Below, piece by piece: positions 3,861 to 56,173 of a stretch of 64,000 nucleotides of DNA (positions are counted from its first letter, which is position 1; each line of letters begins with the position of its first letter). A program made the position numbers and the translations under genes. The notes under the pieces were generated by a model. That model saw nothing but the letters and a program-made list of their open reading frames with translations. It was not told the origin of the DNA and did no database searches. This DNA is from Acidobacteriota bacterium (GTDB lineage Bacteria; Acidobacteriota; Blastocatellia; RBC074): positions 618-64,617 of the forward strand of contig JAFDVI010000015.1 in the NCBI GenBank assembly GCA_018269055.1. Reading direction: 5' to 3'.

Positions 3861-6800
3861 TTAGAACGTGATTCGTATGGACAGTTGCACCTGCCGTGGA
3901 TCGCCTACGCCTTGTCGCAGGAAGCCGTCGAAATTGAACAGCCCCGGTGAAGTGTTCAGCGTGTCAATGGGCAATGGCGCAACCGTTTGCGGGTTGATCA
4001 GGTTTTTGTTGTTGAGGGTATTGAACATCTCGAAGGTCGGAATGATGGCGAAGCGTTCGCCTCCAAAGCGGCGCGACAGCGTCCAATCCAGCGAGAAGTA
4101 TTCATTGTCTTTTCGCACCGTGTTGCGATTGAGCGCCGTGCGAACATCCGGGGTAATTGGCTGTGCGCTACGCGCTTGAATGCGGACGTTGCTTTGGAAC
4201 TTGCCGGGCAATTCGGTGTTCATCGAAAAGTTGAACTTGTGGCGAATGTCGCGGTCGGCCAACGCGTAATCCAGATAGAGGCGGTGAATGTCAAACGAAC
4301 GGTCAGTGAACGGATCACGTTCGTTGGAATCGTCGTCGTAATCTTGCGAATAAACGTAGTTTCCGTCGAACTGAATTCCGTGACTGAAGCGTTTGCGCAA
4401 CCCGACGGTGACACCGCGATAAAGCGATTTACCCACAGAACTGGTGACCATCACTTCGCCAAGTTGCGGGGAAAAGATGCCGTCGCGGTTGGCGTTCAAA
4501 AAACGCGTCATGTGAACGCCTTTGGAATGGGTGAAGTCCAGATACACCGCCAGCGAATTGACGATTTCATGTTCAATGCCGAAGTTGGTCGTGTAAATGC
4601 GCGGATTCGCGTAATCGCGGCTGAATACGCGCACACCTGAAAACAATGGGAATTGGCCAGCAGGAACCTTGGATGGTACGGTCACATTCGGCCAGGTCGG
4701 TCCCGGAACTCCGGACGCGATGATGTCGGAATTCAGGAAGATCGTTTGCTGTTGCACGCCATTGGTGGTGATGGATCCGACCTGCGACAACATGTTTTGG
4801 CGTGCGTTGAAGATTCCCCAGCTTGCACGGAAAACGGTTTTTCCATTTTGGCCTAAATCCCAAGCCAATCCGACGCGCGGTTGGAACATCAGCTTTTGAT
4901 CGGGCAACGTGCCATCCGACGGGAAACGCGGGTCTTTCAGAAAACTGCCATAGGCGGTGGATTCCGGAGAGACGGTCATTGCCGGGAACATCTGGGCTTC
5001 CCAACGCAACCCGTAACTCAATGTCAGGCCGTGTTTGGCTTGCCATTTGTCCTGAATAAACAGCGAGTATTCTTCGTTGTCAATGTTTGACGCGCCGGTG
5101 GCATCCGTGGCTACACCGTCAAGCGCCGCGCCCTGCAGGAAAAGAAGCAGCGGGCCGCCGGTCGTTGTCGCGCCCGACGGACAAGCCGCGCTTGCCGCAA
5201 CGTAGCTGCCGTTCGAGCAGCCTTTGATGTTCGGTCCAAATCCCGGCCCCAGGCTGGCCGGCGAAGCGTAATGCAGGAAACCCGTCACGCTGTCAAAGAT
5301 GTAACGGCCTTCAAAGAATCCACGAAATACTTGTGCGTTGTTACTGTACGTCCAGTCGCCGCCCATTTTGATGTTATGGGCTCCGGCGATGAGCGAAAAC
5401 GTGTCTTTCAACTGCCAACGTTGAAACAATTCGTCTATATTCGGCCCCAGGAAAAACGGATTGCCGAATCGGAAAGAAGGCCCAAATCCCATTGCCGTGT
5501 CGGCTGGGATATTGGATTGCGTTGCCGAACGGGGGCGGTCTTCGCGCAAATAGGTGGCGTGAAATTCATTGACCATCGTTGCCGAAAGCGTCGTGAACAG
5601 GTTCAGGTTGAAGGCGTGGATTTTTCCGGGGCCTTCCGTGCCGTTGGCGGTTGTGCCGTATGTCGGAACGTCAAATGTCTCGTTTTCCTTCTTTGATCGG
5701 TTGAAGTTGTAGGACAGGGCCAGTTCGTTGGTCGGAGTCAGGTTGAAATTCAATTTGCCCAAAAACGCCGACGTGTTAATCGGCTTTTTGACTGGTTGGC
5801 CTTCGTCCTGATTGCGTGTGGTTTTGAAGAAATTGATCAAAGCCAGGCGTTGGCAATCGGCGCTGCTGTTGATCAATGCTTCGTTGGCTTGAATGGTTGG
5901 CGTTTGCACGGAGCAGGGAGCGCCAATCGGCCCGCTCAAATTCGGGCGAGTCAGGTTGCCCAAAATCTGTTCAAACGCACCAAAGAAAAATGCCCTGTCT
6001 TTTTTGATAGCTCCGCCGATGTTGCCGCCGAATTGTTCGCGATGAAAATCCTTGAGCGGTTTGCCGTCAGCAGTGTCTGAGGTCAGAGCTTCCAGCCGCT
6101 GGAAATGAAACAAGTCTCCACGCAGTTGGTTGCCGCCGGATTTGGTGATGACGTTGATCACGCCGCCGGCTGAGCGACCGAATTCGGCGCTGGCGCCGGA
6201 AGAAACGACCTGAAATTCCTTGATTGCGCCGATAGGAATATCAATCGCGGCGCGTTGCCCGCCAGCCTGTTCGGCAAAAAATCCGTTGTTGTAATCGCCA
6301 CCATCCAGGCTGATGTTATTGAAAATTCCGCGCTGACCGTTGAAGTTGATTTCGTCGCCATCGGGCCCTTGCGTGATGCTCACCCCCGGCGTCAACGTCA
6401 GCAAATCTTCAAATTTGCGCCCCAGCACGGGAGTGCGGCTGATGGCTTTTTCGTTCAGCGTCGCGCTGGCTTCGGTTTTGACCGTGTCAATCGTCGGCGA
6501 AGCGGTGATGGTAATGCGATCCTGCACCGCCGACACTTTCAGGCTCAGATTCAGGTTGATTGTCTGGCCGACGGTCAATGGAATGTTTTGTTGTTCCAGC
6601 GTCGAATACCCTTGTTTGGTCACCGTCAGCGTGTAGCTGCCGGGTTGCAGTTGCAGGAACACAAAGCGTCCGTTTGAATCCGTACTTAGATTTTTGTTGG
6701 TGTTGGTATCCAGGTTTTTGACTTCAACGGTTGCGCCGGCAATGACCGCGCCGGTTTGATCGCTGATTGTCCCCTGAATCGAACCTGTTGTGCTTTGCGA

Positions 6801-45113: not shown

Positions 45114-45126
45114 CAATAGCAAACAA

Positions 45127-45160
45127 TAACAGGTGCGAAGAAACCTCTTCGCACCTGTTA
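45127..45160. terminator. Intergenic hairpin between the convergent HD and emrB genes
   Basis: A perfect 14-bp stem, aacaggtgcgaaga / tcttcgcacctgtt, with a 4-nt loop. Confidence 0.5.
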
Positions 45161-45263
45161 TTGCGCCCTTTCAGGGCTTTTGGTGTTTATATTGCCTTTC
45201 CCAGTGCGATGCACTGGGCTGCCATATTTTGCCCCGTTGGGGCTGAACAGATGCTGGAATTTA

Positions 45264-46856
45264 TCAATGCGCGGCAATCGCGCCGCCTGACTTGGCTTTT
45301 TTCAGCAGCAACACCAGCGGCAAACAGAACAAACATCCCAGCGCCATCCAGCGGAATGTGTCCACGTACGCCAGCAAACTTGCCTGTTTCACCAGCATTC
45401 CGTTGAACGCGGCATAGGCTTGCGGCAAGGACAAACCGTGCTGCATCGCCTGCAGTTTCTGTTGGAAGACGGAGTTGTACTGCGTGAAGTTCGCCGCCAA
45501 CGTTGTTTGGTGGGCTTGCGTGTTGCGCGAAACGGCGGTCGTCACCAGCGAAATGCCTACGCCCGCGCCGATGTTGCGCACCAGGCTGAAAATGCCCGTC
45601 GCATTGCCAATCTCTTCATTTTTCAATGTGCCCATCGCCGTCGTCGTCAGCGGCACGAAGATCAAGCCCATCGCAATTCCCTGAATCACATTCGGATAAA
45701 CAAAGTGCATTCCGGTGACATCCAGCGTCAGATTGCCCAACAGGAAGCAGGTGATCGCCGTCATCGCGAATCCTGTGGCAATCAACGCGCGGCTGTCCAC
45801 GCGACTGATCAGCAACCCAACCAGCGGCATTCCGACCATTGCACCCAATCCACGCGGACTGAGCGCCATGCCGCTGTTCATCGCCGGATAGCCCAGCAAG
45901 CCTTGCAAAAATTGCGGCAAAATCGCCATTGGCGCATAGGCGATGATTCCCATGGCGGTGATCAGCATCGTGCCCAGCGCAAAGTTGCGATTGTGCAAAA
46001 TGCGCAGGTTGACGATGGGGTCTTTGGCGCGGAGTTCCCAAATCACGAAAGCGACAAGCGCCGCAATTGCAATCACTGATGCCCAGCGAATCCAGGCGGC
46101 TTCAAACCAATCATCCTGCTGTCCTTTGTCCAGGACGATTTGCAGCGTCGCCAACCCCAGCGCCATCAACCCAAAACCGATGGCGTCAATACGACCAGGT
46201 TTGGCATTTTTGATGTACGGCGGATCTTCCAGAAAGCGGCTCATCATCATCAGGGCGATGATCCCAATCGGAACATTGATGTAAAACACCCAGCGCCACG
46301 AATAATTATCCGTGATCCAACCGCCCAGCGTAGGCCCTATGACTGGCGCAACCACCACGCCCAAGCCATAAATCGCCATTGCCATGCCGCGTTTTTTCGG
46401 CGGAAAGGATTCCAGCATGACTGCGTTGGCGATGGGTTGCAGCGCGCCGCCGCCTACGCCTTGCAGCACGCGCGCGAAAATCAAAATCGGCAAACTGGTG
46501 GCAATGCCGCACAGGAATGAAGACAGCGTGAAGATGACCACGCAGGTCATCAAAAAGCGTTTGCGTCCGAAAAATTTAGAAAACCAGGCGCTCGCCGGCA
46601 GCACGATGGCGTTGGAAACCAGATAGCTGGTCAGCACCCAGGTCGCTTCGTCTTCGCCCGCGGCCAGATTGCCCGCAATGTGCCGCAGCGAAACGTTGAC
46701 GATGGTCGTGTCCAACACTTCCATAAACGTCGCCAACATCACGGCCACCGCGATCAACCACGGATTGAAGCTCGGCTTCCACGGCTCCGGCGTTACGACA
46801 GGAGCGGGAACCGTTGCCTCACTCGTATATTCTGTCATTGTTGCATCTGCGCTCAT
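45264..46856 (-). CDS. emrB: MFS multidrug efflux transporter, DHA2 (EmrB/QacA) family, 14 TMS
   Basis: The DHA2 N-terminus is WLIAVAVMLATFMEVLDTTIVNVSL, with motif A G..RKR.L. The protein is 530 aa. A GGAGGG RBS precedes the start. Confidence 0.85.
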   Translation of the reverse strand: MSADATMTEYTSEATVPAPVVTPEPWKPSFNPWLIAVAVMLATFMEVLDTTIVNVSLRHIAGNLAAGEDEATWVLTSYLVSNAIVLPASAWFSKFFGRKRFLMTCVVIFTLSSFLCGIATSLPILIFARVLQGVGGGALQPIANAVMLESFPPKKRGMAMAIYGLGVVVAPVIGPTLGGWITDNYSWRWVFYINVPIGIIALMMMSRFLEDPPYIKNAKPGRIDAIGFGLMALGLATLQIVLDKGQQDDWFEAAWIRWASVIAIAALVAFVIWELRAKDPIVNLRILHNRNFALGTMLITAMGIIAYAPMAILPQFLQGLLGYPAMNSGMALSPRGLGAMVGMPLVGLLISRVDSRALIATGFAMTAITCFLLGNLTLDVTGMHFVYPNVIQGIAMGLIFVPLTTTAMGTLKNEEIGNATGIFSLVRNIGAGVGISLVTTAVSRNTQAHQTTLAANFTQYNSVFQQKLQAMQHGLSLPQAYAAFNGMLVKQASLLAYVDTFRWMALGCLFCLPLVLLLKKAKSGGAIAAH

Positions 46857-48363: not shown

Positions 48364-49797
48364 TTACCAACGAAATTCTTCAGCTTTACCCAGCGCAGCG
48401 GCCAGATTGATGCGCGCGGAGTTGTACGCGGTCAGCGCGGCGACCTGCGCATTGCGCGCGTTTTCCAGCGCCGTTTGCGCGTTGAGCACTTCGATGTTGT
48501 CGCCGACGCCTGCCGAAAACCGATCGCGAGATTGTTCCAGTTCACGTTCGGCAAGTTTGACTTGCTGTTCGGCCGAAGCCACCTGTTTGGCAGCGGTCGC
48601 CAGCGTCTGCAGCGTGTTGCGCACGTCCTGTTCGACTTGCTCCCGCGTGTCGTTCAACCGCAACTCGCTTTGCGTTTCGCGGCTTTTGGCGGATTTGATC
48701 CGGCCATAGGTCGCGCCACCATTGAATATCGGCACGTTCATGCGCACGCCGACACTGCGCGTGGGCAGCGCCAGTTCGCTCGGCAGCACGCCGCTGCTGC
48801 CGTAATTGGCAAAAAACTCTATGGACGGATACAACTCCGCCTGGGCTGCCTTGCGTTCGTAACTTTGTTGTTTGACTTCCTGTTCGGCGATGGCGATTTC
48901 CACGCGATCCTGCGCGGCGGTTTGCAGCGCGACTTCCACAACCGGCGGAGCCTGCGCACGATAGCGTAGCGCGTCCGTCAGAACTGGGCGACTGTTGAGC
49001 GGCAGTCCCGCGATGCGCAGCAAATTCAGAATCGCCGTTTGCGCATTGGTTTGCGCTTCGGCCAAACGAACTTCCTGATCGGCCTGGCGTGTTTCGGCTC
49101 GCGTCACGTCCACGCCGGTGGCGATGCCTGCGGTTTTCTGGTTGTTGGCCAGTGTGAACAGGCTTTTGGCCAAATCCAGATTCGCTTGCGCGGTTTCAAC
49201 GTCGCGCTGAGAGCGTAGGGCATTTAAGTAAGCCAGTGAAGCAAGAGACGCCACCTGTTGGCGCGCCAGTTTTTCCTGCAAATTGGTAAGCTCTGTATTC
49301 GCTTTGGCCGCTTGAAAATTGCGAATGGAACTCAGGTTGAACAGCGATTGCGCGAATTGAAATCGCGCGTCAAAGGAACTGAATGGCCCGATGAATGTTG
49401 TCGGCACCGGAAAGATTTTGGGCGTCAACCCCTGCGCAGCCAGGTTGACGGTGTTGTTGGATTGCGAAACCGTTCCCGCAACATTCGGCAGCAAAAATGC
49501 CAGCGCCTGCATTTTTTGGCCGAGCGATTCGTTGCGTCGTTCGCGGGCGAGTTTTGTATTCAAATTGTTATCAATTGCGAATTGAATGGCTTGTTGCAGA
49601 CTCAAAGCCGTGGCGTCACTCGTCTGGCCCGTATTGCCTGAATGATTGGCCACGGCCTGAGCCTGATTGTTGAGCGGTGTCGAAACATCCACAGCGGCAC
49701 TCTGCGCCTTTGCTTTCACTCCTTGCAGCGTCAGTGTTACCGCAACCACCAGCCCAACAATAAACTTCACCCCAGCAGTTTGTTTTCGATCCCACAT
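48364..49797 (-). CDS. TolC-like outer membrane efflux protein (OEP family)
   Basis: The start MWDRKQTAGVKFIVGLVVAVTLTLQGVKAKAQ is a signal peptide preceded by AAGGAGGGGGG. Two OEP repeats are present (QQAIQFAIDNNLN...; LRIAGLPLNSRPVLTD...). The ORF track extends the frame to 50184 without a stop. Confidence 0.8.
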   Translation of the reverse strand: MWDRKQTAGVKFIVGLVVAVTLTLQGVKAKAQSAAVDVSTPLNNQAQAVANHSGNTGQTSDATALSLQQAIQFAIDNNLNTKLARERRNESLGQKMQALAFLLPNVAGTVSQSNNTVNLAAQGLTPKIFPVPTTFIGPFSSFDARFQFAQSLFNLSSIRNFQAAKANTELTNLQEKLARQQVASLASLAYLNALRSQRDVETAQANLDLAKSLFTLANNQKTAGIATGVDVTRAETRQADQEVRLAEAQTNAQTAILNLLRIAGLPLNSRPVLTDALRYRAQAPPVVEVALQTAAQDRVEIAIAEQEVKQQSYERKAAQAELYPSIEFFANYGSSGVLPSELALPTRSVGVRMNVPIFNGGATYGRIKSAKSRETQSELRLNDTREQVEQDVRNTLQTLATAAKQVASAEQQVKLAERELEQSRDRFSAGVGDNIEVLNAQTALENARNAQVAALTAYNSARINLAAALGKAEEFRW

Positions 49798-50139
49798 TAT
49801 CCCCCCTCCTTCTTTGCTTGTTCGTTCTTTTCTTTGTGGGTCTGTTTGGTGTGACGCCCGATGCGCGGCAGTGCAGGCAATTTCTCTTATGACTTCTTTG
49901 GTCATAATGTTGGTTGCTGTTGGCGTCACTCCCGCCCCGATCATCTCCGCCAACAACTGCCTGCCTGCCGCGTCAATAAACGTCACCTCGGTCAAATCCA
50001 TGCGGATCACGCTTGAGTGCGTAGCACCTTCAACCTCATCCCAGCATCGCTTCATTTCACCTACCCACTCACCCGCCAGACATCCTTCCACTTTCAATGT
50101 CGTCGCTTCGCCGTCTGATTGTTGCGTGATCCGCATCAT
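49798..50139 (-). CDS. STAS-domain (anti-sigma-factor-antagonist-like) ORF. It has no stop codon of its own and continues in-frame into the tolC-like gene.
   Basis: MMRITQQSDGEATTLKVEGCLAGEWVGEMKRCWDEV..HSSVIRMDLTEVTFIDAAGRQLLAEMIGAGV matches the STAS pattern (LxGxL...VxxDLxxVxFIDSxG). A GAGGAGAAGG RBS lies upstream of ATGATG. The gene is immediately downstream of the sigma-54 promoter. Confidence 0.4.
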
Positions 50140-50167
50140 TTGCCGCCTTCTCCTCGACCAGACAAAT

Positions 50168-50184
50168 GGCAACGTTGGTGCCAA
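50168..50184 (-). promoter_or_regulatory. Sigma-54 (-24/-12) promoter driving the STAS-tolC-emrA-emrB operon
   Basis: The minus-strand sequence TGGCAC-CAACG-TTGC is a perfect match to the TGGCAC-N5-TTGCW consensus. It lies ~15-20 nt upstream of the STAS ORF RBS. Confidence 0.7.
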
Positions 50185-50255
50185 AGCATACGCAACAAAA
50201 GCGGGGAATTAAGCTGCTGAACCAGCTTGAGTTATAAGGATTGCGTTGATCTGGA

Positions 50256-50332
50256 AATGTCGAAGTGTCGAATTAAGAGTCGTGATTTCGACACTATTCG
50301 ACACTTGGCTGAAGTTAGATGTCGAAATGTCG
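50256..50332. promoter_or_regulatory. Array of TGTCGAA / TTCGACA direct and inverted repeats, a candidate upstream activator sequence for the adjacent sigma-54 enhancer-binding protein
   Basis: aTGTCGAAgTGTCGAAttaagagtcgtgatTTCGACACtaTTCGACACttggctgaagttagaTGTCGAAaTGTCGtc. It is centred ~100 bp upstream of the -12 element. Confidence 0.55.
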
Positions 50333-52474
50333 TCAGGAACCGTTTGTTTGGGAGCGGTTGATTCCGAGCTTGTTCATTTTGGAAATCAGCGTGGTGCGTT
50401 TCAGTCCCAACCGAGCCGCTGCGCCATTTGCGCCGCCAACGATCCCGTTGGTTTCGCGCAACGCCTGCAAAATGGCGTTGCGTTCACTATCCGCCAGCGT
50501 AACCGTTGCCGGCTTGGCGAGGGAGTTGAGGGTTGCAACGGAAGGCGCTGTGCTAATGGGGTTGGCATCTTCAGGTAGCGCAGGACCACCAGGCGGAATT
50601 TCCAACTCTGCTCCGCGCGACAAAATGACTGCGCGCTCGATGAAATTTTCCAGTTCGCGCACGTTGCCCGGCCAGGGATATTGTTCCAGCCGCGCGATGG
50701 CATCGGCAGGAATGGTTTCGATCTTTTTGCGAAAGCGGCGCGCGAACTTTTGGGCGAAAAACGCGACCAACAATGGAATGTCGCCACTCCGCTCGCGCAG
50801 CGGCGGCAAATGAATCGGAAAGACATTCAAGCGATAAAACAAATCGCTGCGAAATTGCCGCTCGGCGACCAGTTGCTCCAAATTGGCATTGGTGGCGGCA
50901 ATCAATCGCACGTCCACTTTTTGCGTGCGCGTGCTGCCCAGGCGTTCAAATTCGCCTTCCTGTAAAACGCGAAGCAGTTTGGCCTGCAACTCCAACGGAA
51001 TGTCGCCGACTTCATCCAGAAACAGCGTGCCTTTGTGCGCCAATTCAAACCGGCCAATGCGTTGCGAAATCGCGCCGGTGAATGCGCCGCGTTCGTGTCC
51101 GAACAATTCGCTTTCCAGCAAGCCGGTCGGAATCGCTGCGCAATTCATTTTAACCAGCGTGCGTTCGCGGCGGTCGCTCAAACTGTGAATGGCGCGCGCA
51201 ATCAATTCTTTGCCGGTGCCGGTTTCGCCCAAAATCAACACCGTCGAATCGGTCGGCGCAACGATCTCGACTTGTTTGAACACATTCGCCAGCGAAGGGC
51301 TTTGGCCGATGATTTCGGCGAAGTTGTACTGGCTTTGGATTTCTTCTTCCAGGTAGACCTTTTCGCTGGTCAGCTTGTTTTTCAGGGCCTCGATCTGGTT
51401 GAACGCCAGCGCGTTTTCAACGGCGATGGCGACCTGACGCGAAATCTGGCTGAACAGGTCGGCATCCGCTTGGCTAAATGCGTTGTCTTGCAAACTGCTG
51501 ACAGCCAGAATTCCCAGCACGTGGTCATGAGAAATCAGCGGCGCGATGCAGCTTGATTGAATTCCCTGGGCCGCGATGCGCGCGGTGAATTCCGAATGGA
51601 ACTGGCTGCGATCTTTTTGATTGATGATAATGGTTTCGCGCCGATTGACAGCTTGTTCACCGGCGGTTTCCGAAAGCGGAACGACTTCGTTTTCTTCCAG
51701 ATAATCCCAGTTGCGCGACGAATCCAGCGCGTGAACGCGCAGGCTTTTGGTCTCTTCTTCGTACAAAGCAAGGATAGCAAAGTCGTGATGCAACACTTGG
51801 CGCAAGCGCGTGGAGACGGTTTGCAACAGTTTTTTGAGGTCGAGAATCGTGACGACGGCGTTGTTGACTTCCAACAGCAATTGCGAGCGGTCGCGTTCTG
51901 AAGCCAACGCCTGTTGCGCAGTTCGCGCCTGCTCGAAGTTCAGCGCATTGTCTACGGCAATGGCGACCTGGCGCGTGACTTTTTCCAGAAAGGTGACATC
52001 GCATTCGTTGTAAGCGGATTCGTCCAAACTGCCGAATCCCAATACTCCCAAACTTCGCCCAACAGAATTCATCGGCAGCATGCAAAACGATTTGATTCCG
52101 CTTTGTTGCAACCGTTCCAGAACCTGCGGGTACGCCGAAAGTTGATCGGTGTGAGTGACAAGCAGCGGTTTTTGCGACAGCCAGACCTGTCCGGCTGGGC
52201 TTTCGTGCAAGCCGAGTTCCAGGGACTCTTTTTTGGGAAGCGCGACGCTGGATTGCAGCGAATGCAACCGCATGGTGTTCCGGTCGGCATCGTACAGCAC
52301 CACGCTGATCAGGTCGCATTGCACGACCTGATTGATTTGTTGCGACAGGGCTTGTAGCAACGAAGGCAAATCGCGATGCGCGGTGATAGCTTCCGACACC
52401 GCCAGCAGCGCGCGGTAGCGGCGCAACTGGTAATCAGAAGATGGCGTTGGCGCGGAAGCACTCATGGAAAGCAT
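50333..52474 (-). CDS. Sigma-54-dependent transcriptional activator, FhlA-like (GAF-GAF-AAA+-HTH)
   Basis: There are two GAF-like regions. The AAA+ Walker A is LILGETGTGKE and the sigma-54 contact loop is ESELFGHERGAFTGA. A C-terminal Fis-type HTH is present. The ATG sits 2 nt after the degT-like stop. The ORF track extends the frame to 52573. Confidence 0.85.
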   Translation of the reverse strand: MLSMSASAPTPSSDYQLRRYRALLAVSEAITAHRDLPSLLQALSQQINQVVQCDLISVVLYDADRNTMRLHSLQSSVALPKKESLELGLHESPAGQVWLSQKPLLVTHTDQLSAYPQVLERLQQSGIKSFCMLPMNSVGRSLGVLGFGSLDESAYNECDVTFLEKVTRQVAIAVDNALNFEQARTAQQALASERDRSQLLLEVNNAVVTILDLKKLLQTVSTRLRQVLHHDFAILALYEEETKSLRVHALDSSRNWDYLEENEVVPLSETAGEQAVNRRETIIINQKDRSQFHSEFTARIAAQGIQSSCIAPLISHDHVLGILAVSSLQDNAFSQADADLFSQISRQVAIAVENALAFNQIEALKNKLTSEKVYLEEEIQSQYNFAEIIGQSPSLANVFKQVEIVAPTDSTVLILGETGTGKELIARAIHSLSDRRERTLVKMNCAAIPTGLLESELFGHERGAFTGAISQRIGRFELAHKGTLFLDEVGDIPLELQAKLLRVLQEGEFERLGSTRTQKVDVRLIAATNANLEQLVAERQFRSDLFYRLNVFPIHLPPLRERSGDIPLLVAFFAQKFARRFRKKIETIPADAIARLEQYPWPGNVRELENFIERAVILSRGAELEIPPGGPALPEDANPISTAPSVATLNSLAKPATVTLADSERNAILQALRETNGIVGGANGAAARLGLKRTTLISKMNKLGINRSQTNGS

Positions 52475-52475
52475 T

Positions 52476-53789
52476 TTAATAAGGCGGCGTTGATTCCAGC
52501 AACGCGCGCTGGGCGCGCGACATTCCTTGAATCCGGATGCGCTCGTCTTCGTACCCGACCAACTCCGCCACATTGGTTTTGATTTTCCAGATGGCGGTCA
52601 ACACATCATCTACGTCTTCATCGGTTCCCAGAAAAATCTGGTGCGGCAACCAGACGGATTCTTCGTAGCCCGCGCGCACGGCAACGGGGCAATCAAATTC
52701 GCGCTTGCTCTGTGCCCACGAAGGGAACTTTTCCGCCGCAAATTCAAACAGCGACGATTTGTACACCGCTTCATAAAACCGCCCATCGCAATGGACGCCT
52801 TCGGCATTGAGCGCGGCGACAAACGCGTTGCGGTGAATGCCGCCAAAAGCTTTCGGGTGAAATTTGAACACGTAATGATAACTGGCTTGGCGTGTGATGC
52901 GCGGATCGCGCGGCAGCAAACTGATGCCTTCGATCTGGCGCAAGCCTTCTTCCAGAAGTTGGGTTTGCCGTTCCCGTTGCAGCGTTTGCGCTTCCAACCG
53001 TTCAAGCTGCGCCAGCAAAATGGCCGCCTGGAATTCCGTCAGGCGGTAGTTGTGGCCGAGCGCCGGTTCGCCTTTGGATTCGCGGCGCGGCGGTCGCCCG
53101 CAATTGGCCAGGCGAATGACCTGATCGGCCAGGTTGATGTCGCTGGTGATGACCGCGCCGCCTTCGCCAGCGGTCATCAGCTTCGAGGTTTGGAAGGAAA
53201 AACTTCCGGCGTGACCGATGGAACCGGCACCCTTGTCTTCTTTATTGAAGCCGCGCCATTGGCCGCCGTGCGCGTGCGCGCAATCTTCCAGCACGAACAA
53301 ATTGTGTTTTGTCGCAATCTCCAAAATTGCATCCATATCCGCGAAGCGAAATCCCAAATGCACGGGAATGACGGCACGCGTGCGTTCGGTGATGGCGGCT
53401 TCAATCAAATTCACGTCCAGGCAGTAACTATTCGGATCAACGTCCACGAACACGGGCGCGGCTCCGGCAAACAGTACCGCCGCCGCAGTGCCTTCCCAGG
53501 TGTAGGCCGGAACGATGACTTCATCGCCTGCGCCAATGCCTGCGGCTTGCAGCGCCAGTTCCAGTGAAACGGTTCCGTTGGTGACGGCGATGCCATATTT
53601 CGCGCCGTGCGCTTCGGCGAAGCGTTTGCCGAATTCGCGCGCGTAATCGTTGGGGCAGGGATATCCGCCCCAGTTGCGACTTTCCAAAACGGTTTCGAGC
53701 GCCCGAGCTTCGCGCTGGTCATAAATCGGCCAGGCGGTGAACGGAGTTGTGCGGACGGGCGAGCCTCCGCGTAAAGCAAGTTGAGCCAT
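52476..53789 (-). CDS. DegT/DnrJ/EryC1/StrS-family PLP-dependent sugar aminotransferase
   Basis: PLP-lysine region GSFSFQTSKLMTAGEGG. AYTWEGTAAAV and the overall 437-aa architecture are typical of DegT. Confidence 0.8.
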   Translation of the reverse strand: MAQLALRGGSPVRTTPFTAWPIYDQREARALETVLESRNWGGYPCPNDYAREFGKRFAEAHGAKYGIAVTNGTVSLELALQAAGIGAGDEVIVPAYTWEGTAAAVLFAGAAPVFVDVDPNSYCLDVNLIEAAITERTRAVIPVHLGFRFADMDAILEIATKHNLFVLEDCAHAHGGQWRGFNKEDKGAGSIGHAGSFSFQTSKLMTAGEGGAVITSDINLADQVIRLANCGRPPRRESKGEPALGHNYRLTEFQAAILLAQLERLEAQTLQRERQTQLLEEGLRQIEGISLLPRDPRITRQASYHYVFKFHPKAFGGIHRNAFVAALNAEGVHCDGRFYEAVYKSSLFEFAAEKFPSWAQSKREFDCPVAVRAGYEESVWLPHQIFLGTDEDVDDVLTAIWKIKTNVAELVGYEDERIRIQGMSRAQRALLESTPPY

Positions 53790-54778: not shown

Positions 54779-56173
54779 TCATTTTTTGTTTTGACTGTCC
54801 GATCGTTCCTGTAACTGAAAGCCGAATTTCGCGCCTTCGGTTTTCAACCAGTCAATATATGCTTTACGGGTTTTCAGCAAATCCTGGCCCACCGGGTCAA
54901 GTCGTTCAACCAAAGGGGAGGAATCCGGCTGGCTGACAATTTGTTGTTGCCATTTCAACAGCCGAATCATCTCCAGCCGAATGTTCTCGGTTTTTTCGTC
55001 GGGTGCTGTGCTTTTTTCCAAGGCGATTTCCGCAACGGTTAGTTGGGCAACACTCTGCGGCGAGGGTTGCCAATCGGTTTTCGCACCATCCGGCGGAAAA
55101 ACGTTGACCATCGCGTCATCCGCAGCCTCGATGTTTTGCAGCACGACTTTGACTTTGTTGAATCGTTTATCGAGCAGCGGCGAACTGTGTCTGTAAGCCA
55201 ACACAAAACTGGTCAGGACGACCAATCCACATACGGCCAGGATTGCCTTGTCCGTTTGAGCCAAGCGCCGCGTGTTTCTGGCAGAAACATAGGGAATGAG
55301 CAATGCCAAAAGTCCGCCGGTCAGCAAACCTCCGATATGTGCGGCGTTGTCCACATATCGGATGGAAAAACCGAGCAGCAAGTTGATGGCAATCGCGGGC
55401 AACACGCCGGATTTCAGCGCCTGTAAAAATCGCGGCGGCAATTCGCTGTGATATCGAAAACTGAACACAGCGACGACGCCGAACAAACCAAAGATTGCTC
55501 CGGAAGCTCCGGCGCTGGCGCCAATCAGATCGTGTTTCCAGGAATGATTGAGAAAACTGGCGAACGAGCCTCCCGCTGCTGCCAGCAGGTAAATCGCCAG
55601 AAAGCGAGCCGAACCATATAGTTTTTCGACAATCGTGCCGACCGACCAGAACACGTAAGAATTGAGCAGAATGTGAAGCAGTCCAATATGAATGAATGCG
55701 GGCGTGATTAATCGAAACCACTGGCCTTGCAGCAAGAGTTCATTATTTTGCGCGCCAAAGGCAAGCAGCGTAAGGCGGTCAGCGCCGCTCATCAACGTCT
55801 GAAAAAAGTCGCCTCCGGCAACAAAGGTCATTAATAAATAAATCGCCACATTCACTCCGATTAAAATCGGCGCGACGACAATTGGGCGGGAAAACAGATC
55901 GTGCAAAAACAATTGTTCGCCAATTTGCTGCGCAATGGGAGAAGTTGCTCCACAGTATTCACAAGTGGGGGCTTGACTGGAGATTAACTGCCCGCAATTT
56001 GGACAGACAATGTAAGGTCTTGGTTCGGACGGATTGAGTCCTTCGTTATCCACACCGGCTCCTAAAAGTGTTTGTTGGAATGAACGGAGCCGGGATTGTA
56101 GCCGAGCGGTTGCGCGCCTGTCATGATGGCGTTGTTGCGCGTGTAAAAACCAACTGCTAAACTGCGGCTCCAC
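54779..56173 (-). CDS. Rhomboid-family intramembrane serine protease with an N-terminal zinc-ribbon and a C-terminal soluble extension
   Basis: CPNCGQ...CEYCG zinc ribbon. The rhomboid core has GASGAIFGLFG (GxSG) and a downstream catalytic His in AHIGGLLTG. A ~130-aa C-terminal non-membrane tail follows. Confidence 0.7.
   Translation of the reverse strand: MEPQFSSWFLHAQQRHHDRRATARLQSRLRSFQQTLLGAGVDNEGLNPSEPRPYIVCPNCGQLISSQAPTCEYCGATSPIAQQIGEQLFLHDLFSRPIVVAPILIGVNVAIYLLMTFVAGGDFFQTLMSGADRLTLLAFGAQNNELLLQGQWFRLITPAFIHIGLLHILLNSYVFWSVGTIVEKLYGSARFLAIYLLAAAGGSFASFLNHSWKHDLIGASAGASGAIFGLFGVVAVFSFRYHSELPPRFLQALKSGVLPAIAINLLLGFSIRYVDNAAHIGGLLTGGLLALLIPYVSARNTRRLAQTDKAILAVCGLVVLTSFVLAYRHSSPLLDKRFNKVKVVLQNIEAADDAMVNVFPPDGAKTDWQPSPQSVAQLTVAEIALEKSTAPDEKTENIRLEMIRLLKWQQQIVSQPDSSPLVERLDPVGQDLLKTRKAYIDWLKTEGAKFGFQLQERSDSQNKK

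Follow-up and report, generated by a model that had tools for sequence, protein, structure and literature searches.

Small proteins of the STAS fold are best known from SpoIIAA and RsbV (PF01740/PF13466), the classical partner-switching proteins, with their phospho-serine and their anti-sigma kinase and PP2C partners. Other small, non-phosphorylated STAS domains are tied to envelope transport systems, as in MlaB of MlaFEDB, which binds the ABC (ATP-binding cassette) ATPase, and in the C-terminal STAS domain of SulP/SLC26 transporters. Sigma-54 regulation offers a third point of reference: in the pairs PspA-PspF, HrpV-HrpS and NifL-NifA, a small protein is encoded within or beside the sigma-54-dependent operon of an adjacent bacterial enhancer-binding protein (bEBP). 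Finally, EmrAB-TolC-type pumps combine an outer-membrane efflux protein of the OEP family, a membrane-fusion protein (MFP) of the HlyD/EmrA type and a DHA2-family permease of the major facilitator superfamily (MFS); Escherichia coli emrRAB is controlled by a MarR-type repressor, with tolC unlinked. Here we analyze a stretch of 64,000 nucleotides from an Acidobacteriota bacterium (assembly GCA_018269055.1, contig JAFDVI010000015.1, positions 618 to 64,617), referred to below as the window, in which a STAS gene reads without a stop codon into a tolC-like gene at the head of a predicted sigma-54 efflux operon.

The components of this locus are all of known kinds (STAS fold, TolC, EmrAB-type pump and sigma-54/bEBP control), and its likeness to the described systems is partial in each case. 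The window STAS shares fold and size with SpoIIAA and RsbV, along with a D-x-x-G motif where helix 2 begins; unlike them, it has alanine in place of the phospho-serine and no kinase or PP2C gene nearby, heads a sigma-54 efflux operon and scores below the Pfam gathering threshold. As with MlaB and SulP/SLC26, a small STAS without phosphorylation appears tied to an envelope transport system, but where MlaB binds an ABC ATPase, the family described here accompanies varied pumps (MFS; resistance-nodulation-division, RND; and ABC) and has a bEBP as its conserved neighbor. The logic that we propose for the STAS protein is that of PspA-PspF, HrpV-HrpS and NifL-NifA, to which it is unrelated in sequence and in fold; the analogy serves solely to motivate the mechanism. 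The three EmrAB-TolC components are encoded in one operon in the window and, unlike in E. coli, tolC belongs to that operon, regulation is assigned to sigma-54 with a bEBP, and the leading STAS gene is fused to tolC.

The fusion takes the form of a single unbroken open reading frame (ORF) on the minus strand, 50184..48364, with 606 aa counted from a TTG codon and 591 aa from an ATGATG at 50139. From MMRITQQ up to the tolC ATG there are 114 sense codons and no stop; the STAS frame crosses AAGGAGGGGGGATA, then the tolC ATG (49797..49795) and the signal peptide MWDRKQTAGVKFIVGLVVAVTLTLQGVKAKA followed by QS, and ends at the stop at 48364. Stops are present in both remaining frames. An earlier sequence-only reading of this DNA had described a STAS ORF that lacks a stop and stays in frame with tolC through the latter's Shine-Dalgarno (SD) sequence and signal peptide, and the continuity of the ORF bears this out, though not the start listed for it. 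Since the listed TTG at 50184 sits inside the sigma-54 promoter, the true STAS start is ATG 50139, with GGAGAAGG upstream; MMRIT or MLRIT forms the N-terminus in all homologues. The tolC SD AAGGAGGGGGG and its ATG are intact and, in the alignment, conserved in position relative to orthologues, and in the window tolC starts at a position matching the starts of orthologous TolC proteins (MWDRKQ versus MEMRKQ or MKMRKQ). The SD runs into a homopolymer of six guanines (G6), and this run is the site that decides the reading frame (codons GAA GGA GGG GGG ATA ATG). In silico, a run of five guanines (G5) ends the STAS protein at ...KEGGG with a TAA that overlaps the tolC ATG (TAATG), leaving a 113-aa STAS, and a run of seven (G7) gives a long out-of-frame run. 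As a remark only, free STAS might in principle come from transcriptional slippage or a programmed +1 frameshift at GGG GGG A; G6 is short for either, and the idea was set aside.

The same junction is present in two assemblies. A 24-kb Logan contig of SRR24111707 is 100% identical to the window in DNA over 5,585 nt, with the exact 591-aa product called, and the same 591-aa protein is found on a 269-kb contig of an NCBI metagenome-assembled genome (MAG), Acidobacteria bacterium, as MBS1788144.1, where it is labelled 'TolC family protein'. The main alternative at this point is a sequencing or assembly artefact, in which the true genome has G5 and the locus is an ordinary, translationally coupled TAATG gene pair with a 113-aa STAS. 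Homopolymers are classic indel-error sites, every close orthologue carries a stop, and removal of one G places the stop exactly at TAATG and yields a STAS within the family range of 94-121 aa; yet TAATG would arise before an ATG in roughly 1 in 16 cases by chance, and identical sequence was obtained in both the NCBI MAG contig and the k-mer-based Logan assembly. Neither the 113-aa STAS expected from G5 nor a separately called 477-aa TolC was found among about 15 billion catalogued proteins, and no broken genes occur elsewhere in the window, which holds many intact ORFs of 500-1,250 aa and no sign of widespread frameshifts. We regard an artefact as unlikely. A pseudogene, another of the options raised by the sequence-only reading, was rejected because neither the STAS nor the TolC domain is disrupted. 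Its remaining option, a real fusion with an internal restart, is the best supported, by the two identical assemblies, the intact and conserved SD/ATG and the obligate fusions found elsewhere (see below). We consider it probable that the sequence is real and that STAS-TolC read-through with an internal tolC start is the best explanation for it.

Comparison with close relatives places the read-through as a recent event. In all 25 of the nearest orthologous loci, a STAS stop codon is followed by a spacer and then by the tolC SD/ATG. These loci (L001, L081-84 and L086-105) represent about 22 independent cases, L081-84 being near-identical Logan contigs of one protein, and L086-L105 are 20 metagenome contigs; the clade is Blastocatellia-like, and its STAS proteins carry an RCWDE motif. 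Within the window's clade the spacer from stop to tolC measures 25-45 nt, and the frame of tolC with respect to STAS can be any of the three. Because all close loci have a stop, two separate genes are taken as the ancestral state, with the window a derived, lineage-specific exception, and the missing stop is not a chance feature of the family. The ordinary two-gene arrangement, which the sequence-only reading had expected if orthologues showed a stop, is thus the norm for the relatives and the ancestor, but not for the window sequence itself. The stop was most likely lost when a single base changed in the run of guanines within the tolC SD, which destroyed a TAATG overlap. Small deletion of stop and spacer is an alternative cause, of which the G-run explanation is the simpler. 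Alignment of the junction DNA with L001 and L081 was tried for such a deletion (~12-23 nt); identity is only about 59% and the tail sub-type differs, and the gap placement was not relied on. In a neighbor-joining tree of STAS domains, the window falls inside an unfused clade and the fused loci fall in two other clades. This three-way split indicates that fusion arose at least three times independently and, with its STAS belonging to an unfused clade, the window would share the architecture of the fusion family by convergence, not ancestry. On this view the fusion in the window arose independently and very recently; an error of one base in the homopolymer is the less likely alternative.

Natural STAS-signal peptide-TolC fusions exist in other Acidobacteria. 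Eleven genome loci have a complete fused ORF of 526-544 aa, eight of them in Bryobacterales (L005, L007, L009, L015, L018, L044, L045 and L056) and the others in Terriglobia and unclassified Acidobacteria (L006, L049 and L052). A further Bryobacterales locus (L041) is also fused, for 12 fused loci examined in all. In the fused ORFs, the C-terminal STAS helix (...DEIARAGKH) leads directly or via a basic linker of 5-35 aa into the hydrophobic h-region of the signal peptide, after which come a cleavage site of the type R/K-A before Q and then PLRLTLRDAV, the conserved start of mature TolC. In none of the 12 fused loci is a start candidate at the position of the signal peptide preceded by an SD, and several of these loci have no ATG, GTG or TTG codon at all from the STAS helix to the h-region. 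Without an internal start codon, or an SD-preceded one, before the h-region, the fusion appears obligate, and in the loci lacking such a codon TolC could, from the sequence, be made only as a fusion. L041, from the long-read-style MAG MFD09671, is frameshifted inside tolC, with TolC matches in two frames (4557-5590); an indel introduced in assembly is the probable cause, a caution that such MAGs can contain homopolymer errors.

The fusions are also widespread at the protein level. A search with the profile of the fused N-terminus (alignment A3) against 1.84 billion representative proteins found STAS, signal peptide and TolC joined in about 50 of the best 150 clusters, which are defined at 50% identity or less, and full-length examples have 544, 579 and 553 aa (P0175, P0197 and P0306 among the fusion proteins). 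Such single ORFs, with an h-region between STAS and OEP, are kept across divergent species. The window has the same parts (STAS, basic linker, h-region, A-x-A-type site and OEP) in identical order. It differs in that the Bryobacterales and Terriglobia fusions appear obligate and old, as judged from the low identity of their clusters, and have no convincing internal SD/ATG, whereas the fusion in the window is recent, unique in its clade and retains the tolC SD/ATG. Word-indexed homologue searches were incomplete: one missed the window's own catalogued 591-aa protein and another gave only four unfused TolC N-termini. Absence of fused matches in them is therefore weak evidence, and the locus-based counts carry the argument. 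NCBI labels the fusions just as outer membrane efflux or TolC proteins. Some short proteins in alignment A3 (P0050, P0051, P0053, P0056 and P0061) have the STAS-signal peptide-TolC N-terminus joined directly to a C-terminal ...ATGQMESLYAK; their two OEP repeats may have undergone internal deletion or collapsed in assembly. A full-text literature search found nothing on STAS-signal peptide-TolC fusions. The features of the window locus are listed in Table 1.

Table 1. Predicted features of the STAS-tolC efflux locus and its surroundings, in window coordinates.
Feature	Position	Strand	Basis
Sigma-54 enhancer-binding protein, GAF-GAF-AAA+ sigma-54 interaction-HTH_8	50333..52573	-	Pfam
Six TGTCGAA/TTCGACA copies in nested perfect inverted repeats, e.g. 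AAGTGTCGAAT / ATTCGACACTT	50255..50332		Repeat search
Sigma-54 (-24/-12) promoter TGGCACcaacgTTGC	50169..50183	-	Exact TGGCAC-N5-TTGC
STAS-fold domain, fusion residues 1-98, start ATGATG after GGAGAAGG	49846..50139	-	AlphaFold2 (AF2), Foldseek, homologues
Disordered basic tail/linker, residues 99-114, HRASHQTDPQRKERTSKEGGGI, without a stop, overlapping tolC SD	49798..49845	-	pLDDT (AF2 per-residue confidence) 49-55
tolC Shine-Dalgarno AAGGAGG (49811..49805) running into G6 homopolymer (49806..49801)	49801..49811	-	Read from sequence
tolC start (49797..49795) and 31-aa signal peptide MWDRKQTAGVKFIVGLVVAVTLTLQGVKAKA, predicted signal peptidase I site between AKA and Q	49705..49797	-	AF2 helix 121-145
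Mature TolC-family outer-membrane factor, including stop codon	48364..49704	-	Pfam OEP (PF02321) 1e-57, two repeats
EmrA/HlyD-type membrane-fusion protein, 468 aa	46880..48286	-	Pfam HlyD_D23, HlyD_3, Biotin_lipoyl_2; exact match MBS1788143.1
DHA2-family MFS efflux permease	45264..46856	-	Pfam MFS_1 5.4e-61; NCBI 'DHA2 family efflux MFS transporter permease subunit'
Intrinsic terminator, 19-bp stem, 100 nt past MFS stop, operon end	45123..45164	-	Promoter/terminator scan

The two halves of the fusion were identified separately. For the N-terminal half, the sequence-only reading had seen a convincing STAS domain, which holds by fold and family and falls short by hidden Markov model: the Pfam scores are below the gathering thresholds for both STAS_2 (PF13466; E = 6.5e-4, 20.3 bits versus 29.2) and STAS (PF01740; 18.3 bits versus 22.6). 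Against this, there are 39 standalone homologues of 94-121 aa with 51-74% identity, many of which carry a precomputed PF13466 match. The AF2 model, built on the homologue alignment, has the topology beta-beta-alpha-beta-alpha-beta-alpha (E3-9, E12-21, H23-39, E44-55, H57-68, E72-74 and H78-98) with pLDDT of about 90 for residues 1-98; residues 99-120 are disordered, and residues 121-145 form the helix of the signal peptide. The resulting four-stranded beta-sheet with flanking helices is the SpoIIAA-like STAS fold, and the best Foldseek matches in the PDB are RsbV (6m36), SpoIIAA (1th8), TM1442 and RsbS (E = 5e-5 to 1e-3; TM-score normalised to the target 0.55-0.68). STAS identity is confirmed at the level of family and fold. 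The tails of orthologous STAS proteins (L086-L105, P0002-P0039) are variable and of low complexity (SGQSRQ/SGQSG) and end in a stop, hence the spread of lengths from 94 to 121 aa. The window shares another tail type (REIACTAA...) with P0001, its closest STAS homologue at 74% identity, whose contig ends 38 nt past the stop.

In the second half, residues 130-606 of the listed ORF constitute the TolC/OEP protein, with two OEP repeats behind an N-terminal hydrophobic helix that carries the predicted cleavage site. The site was assigned by the A-x-A rule and without a dedicated predictor. The model TIGR01844 matches with E = 1.7e-46 and a score of 159, below its cut-off of 225.

Classical partner switching, as implied by the sequence-only reading, is not supported for this STAS protein. 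The position of the phospho-serine in SpoIIAA/RsbV is alanine in the window (FIDAAG, DAAG), where the match of DAAG to SpoIIAA Ser58 is a motif alignment only, and homologues mostly have alanine, glutamate or aspartate at the phospho-acceptor position in the alignments. A Pfam scan of the large flanking ORFs from ~40.3 to 59.5 kb found no gene for an anti-sigma kinase (HATPase_c) or a PP2C phosphatase within about 8 kb. By sequence, the window protein would have the STAS fold without the classical phospho-switch and be non-phosphorylatable.

The assignment of the locus to a sigma-54 efflux operon, also made in the sequence-only reading, stands at the level of sequence, with a perfect TGGCAC-N5-TTGC, an adjacent bEBP and the pump genes downstream. 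The predicted promoter comes after the bEBP gene and precedes the STAS ATG by 30 nt. Its exact match is unique in the 64 kb of the window, for which 0.26 matches were expected, and 23 of 100 shuffled sequences contained at least one. The bEBP has Pfam matches to Sigma54_activat (1.9e-73), GAF_2 (3.8e-33, two stretches) and HTH_8 (5.5e-6). Between its stop codon and the promoter, about 70-150 nt upstream of -24/-12, the position of the TGTCGAA/TTCGACA repeats makes them candidate bEBP binding sites (upstream activating sequences). Among 80 related loci, the strict pattern TGGCA[CT]-N5-[TC]TGC is found upstream of STAS in four only, and the relaxed pattern YGG-N8-YTGC in 29, versus 0.09 expected per locus; the relaxed motif is supportive, though not universal with the patterns used. 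In its longest form the bEBP ORF extends about 100 nt into the 3' end of an upstream DegT/DnrJ aminotransferase gene (52476-52573), and the real start is probably an internal methionine (MLSMSAS...) near 52474. Further upstream, 2.2 kb from the bEBP gene, a rhomboid intramembrane protease is encoded (54779-56173, minus strand), with a zinc ribbon at its N-terminus; it may be relevant if a signal-peptide-anchored STAS needs release.

Across 80 genome loci, STAS heads efflux operons whose transporters fall into three unrelated classes. The first is DHA2-MFS with an EmrA-like MFP, with TolC present or absent (many Planctomycetota loci have MFP and MFS without TolC); the second is RND (AcrB) with an AcrA-like MFP, in Nitrospira (L047, L054, L055 and L060) and Bryobacterales (L063 and L073); and the third is ABC (L002). 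An orthologous GAF-GAF bEBP is encoded directly upstream of STAS on the same strand in 43 of these loci, and the module of bEBP, sigma-54 promoter, STAS and efflux genes occurs in Acidobacteriota, Planctomycetota and Nitrospirota. Because bEBP and STAS form the constant pair while the class of pump varies, we favor a regulatory role, in which STAS would be an operon-encoded feedback or partner protein of the bEBP circuit. Nothing on a STAS protein with a bEBP and efflux module was found in a full-text literature search.

One possible course of events follows from these features. Transcription would start at the sigma-54 promoter and be activated by the adjacent bEBP, as suggested by the consensus motif and the gene position. 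Initiation at ATG 50139 would give a 591-aa precursor of STAS, linker, signal peptide and TolC, and the intact internal SD/ATG (49811..49795) would probably allow ordinary pre-TolC to be made as well. Judged from the obligate fusions and from the positive-inside rule, the STAS domain would remain cytoplasmic and the h-region would insert N-in. Signal peptidase I would then cleave after AKA, mature TolC would move to the outer membrane, and a STAS-anchor of ~145 aa would stay tethered in the inner membrane. The fused state should be tolerated in the window, because the same architecture is the sole form of the gene in the Bryobacterales and Terriglobia concerned.

Several points weigh against this account of a real fusion with a bEBP-linked STAS. 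The frame hinges on the length of the G6 homopolymer as given in the assemblies, and the MAG and Logan assemblies may go back to shared reads or to one site. Within its clade the window alone is fused, and its 90% cluster contains no other member. Cleavage of the signal peptide and its handling by the signal recognition particle (SRP) and Sec, behind an N-terminal extension of ~114 aa, are inferred. The link to the bEBP is one of gene neighborhood only, and no adjacent bEBP was found in the 4 kb examined upstream of the Bryobacterales fused genes. This last observation also fits a different role for STAS, as an accessory subunit of the pump, comparable to MlaB on MlaF or to the STAS domain of SLC26/SulP, with the fusion tethering it at the inner membrane beside the transporter. 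Such a subunit would explain why STAS invariably leads an efflux operon and suits the membrane tethering in the fusions; MlaB and SLC26 STAS domains are among the (weak) PDB profile and fold matches, and JGI labels some homologues 'MlaB component'. The DHA2-MFS, RND and ABC pumps are nevertheless unrelated and have no common cytoplasmic domain, and the recurrence of an orthologous bEBP beside STAS speaks against it. We regard a pump subunit as the main rival to the regulatory role, though the less likely of the two.

A further hypothesis grants that the read-through is real and takes it to be neutral or mildly harmful: TolC would come from its own SD/ATG only, the fused product would be poorly exported or degraded, and free STAS would effectively be lost, as in early pseudogenisation. 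N-terminal extensions before signal peptides generally lower export, and a singular event within the clade that keeps the internal SD/ATG is what such a course would leave. However, obligate fusions of equivalent geometry, with linkers of about 5-35 aa, are maintained in other Acidobacteria across divergent clusters, so fused precursors are evidently functional, and the STAS domain of the window is intact and well predicted. We find a neutral or harmful read-through quite improbable. A more speculative extension of the regulatory reading, on which we place little confidence, is that the STAS-signal peptide-TolC protein is a bifunctional precursor. Each cleavage would yield one mature TolC for the outer membrane and exactly one STAS tethered by the used signal peptide, perhaps freed later by a signal-peptide or rhomboid-type protease, and TolC export would thereby be reported stoichiometrically to the sigma-54/bEBP circuit; the window would be a third, very recent origin that still has the ancestral internal start.

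A folded cytoplasmic regulatory domain of ~100 aa in front of the signal peptide of an outer-membrane precursor is very unusual for Sec-dependent export. The annotation 'TolC family protein' conceals the STAS domain of such ORFs. The repeated appearance of the fusion (at least three origins and some 50 clusters defined at no more than 50% identity) suggests selective value in tethering STAS to, or co-producing it with, TolC, and the bEBP-STAS-efflux module offers a candidate case in which a STAS protein would control a sigma-54 activator post-translationally.

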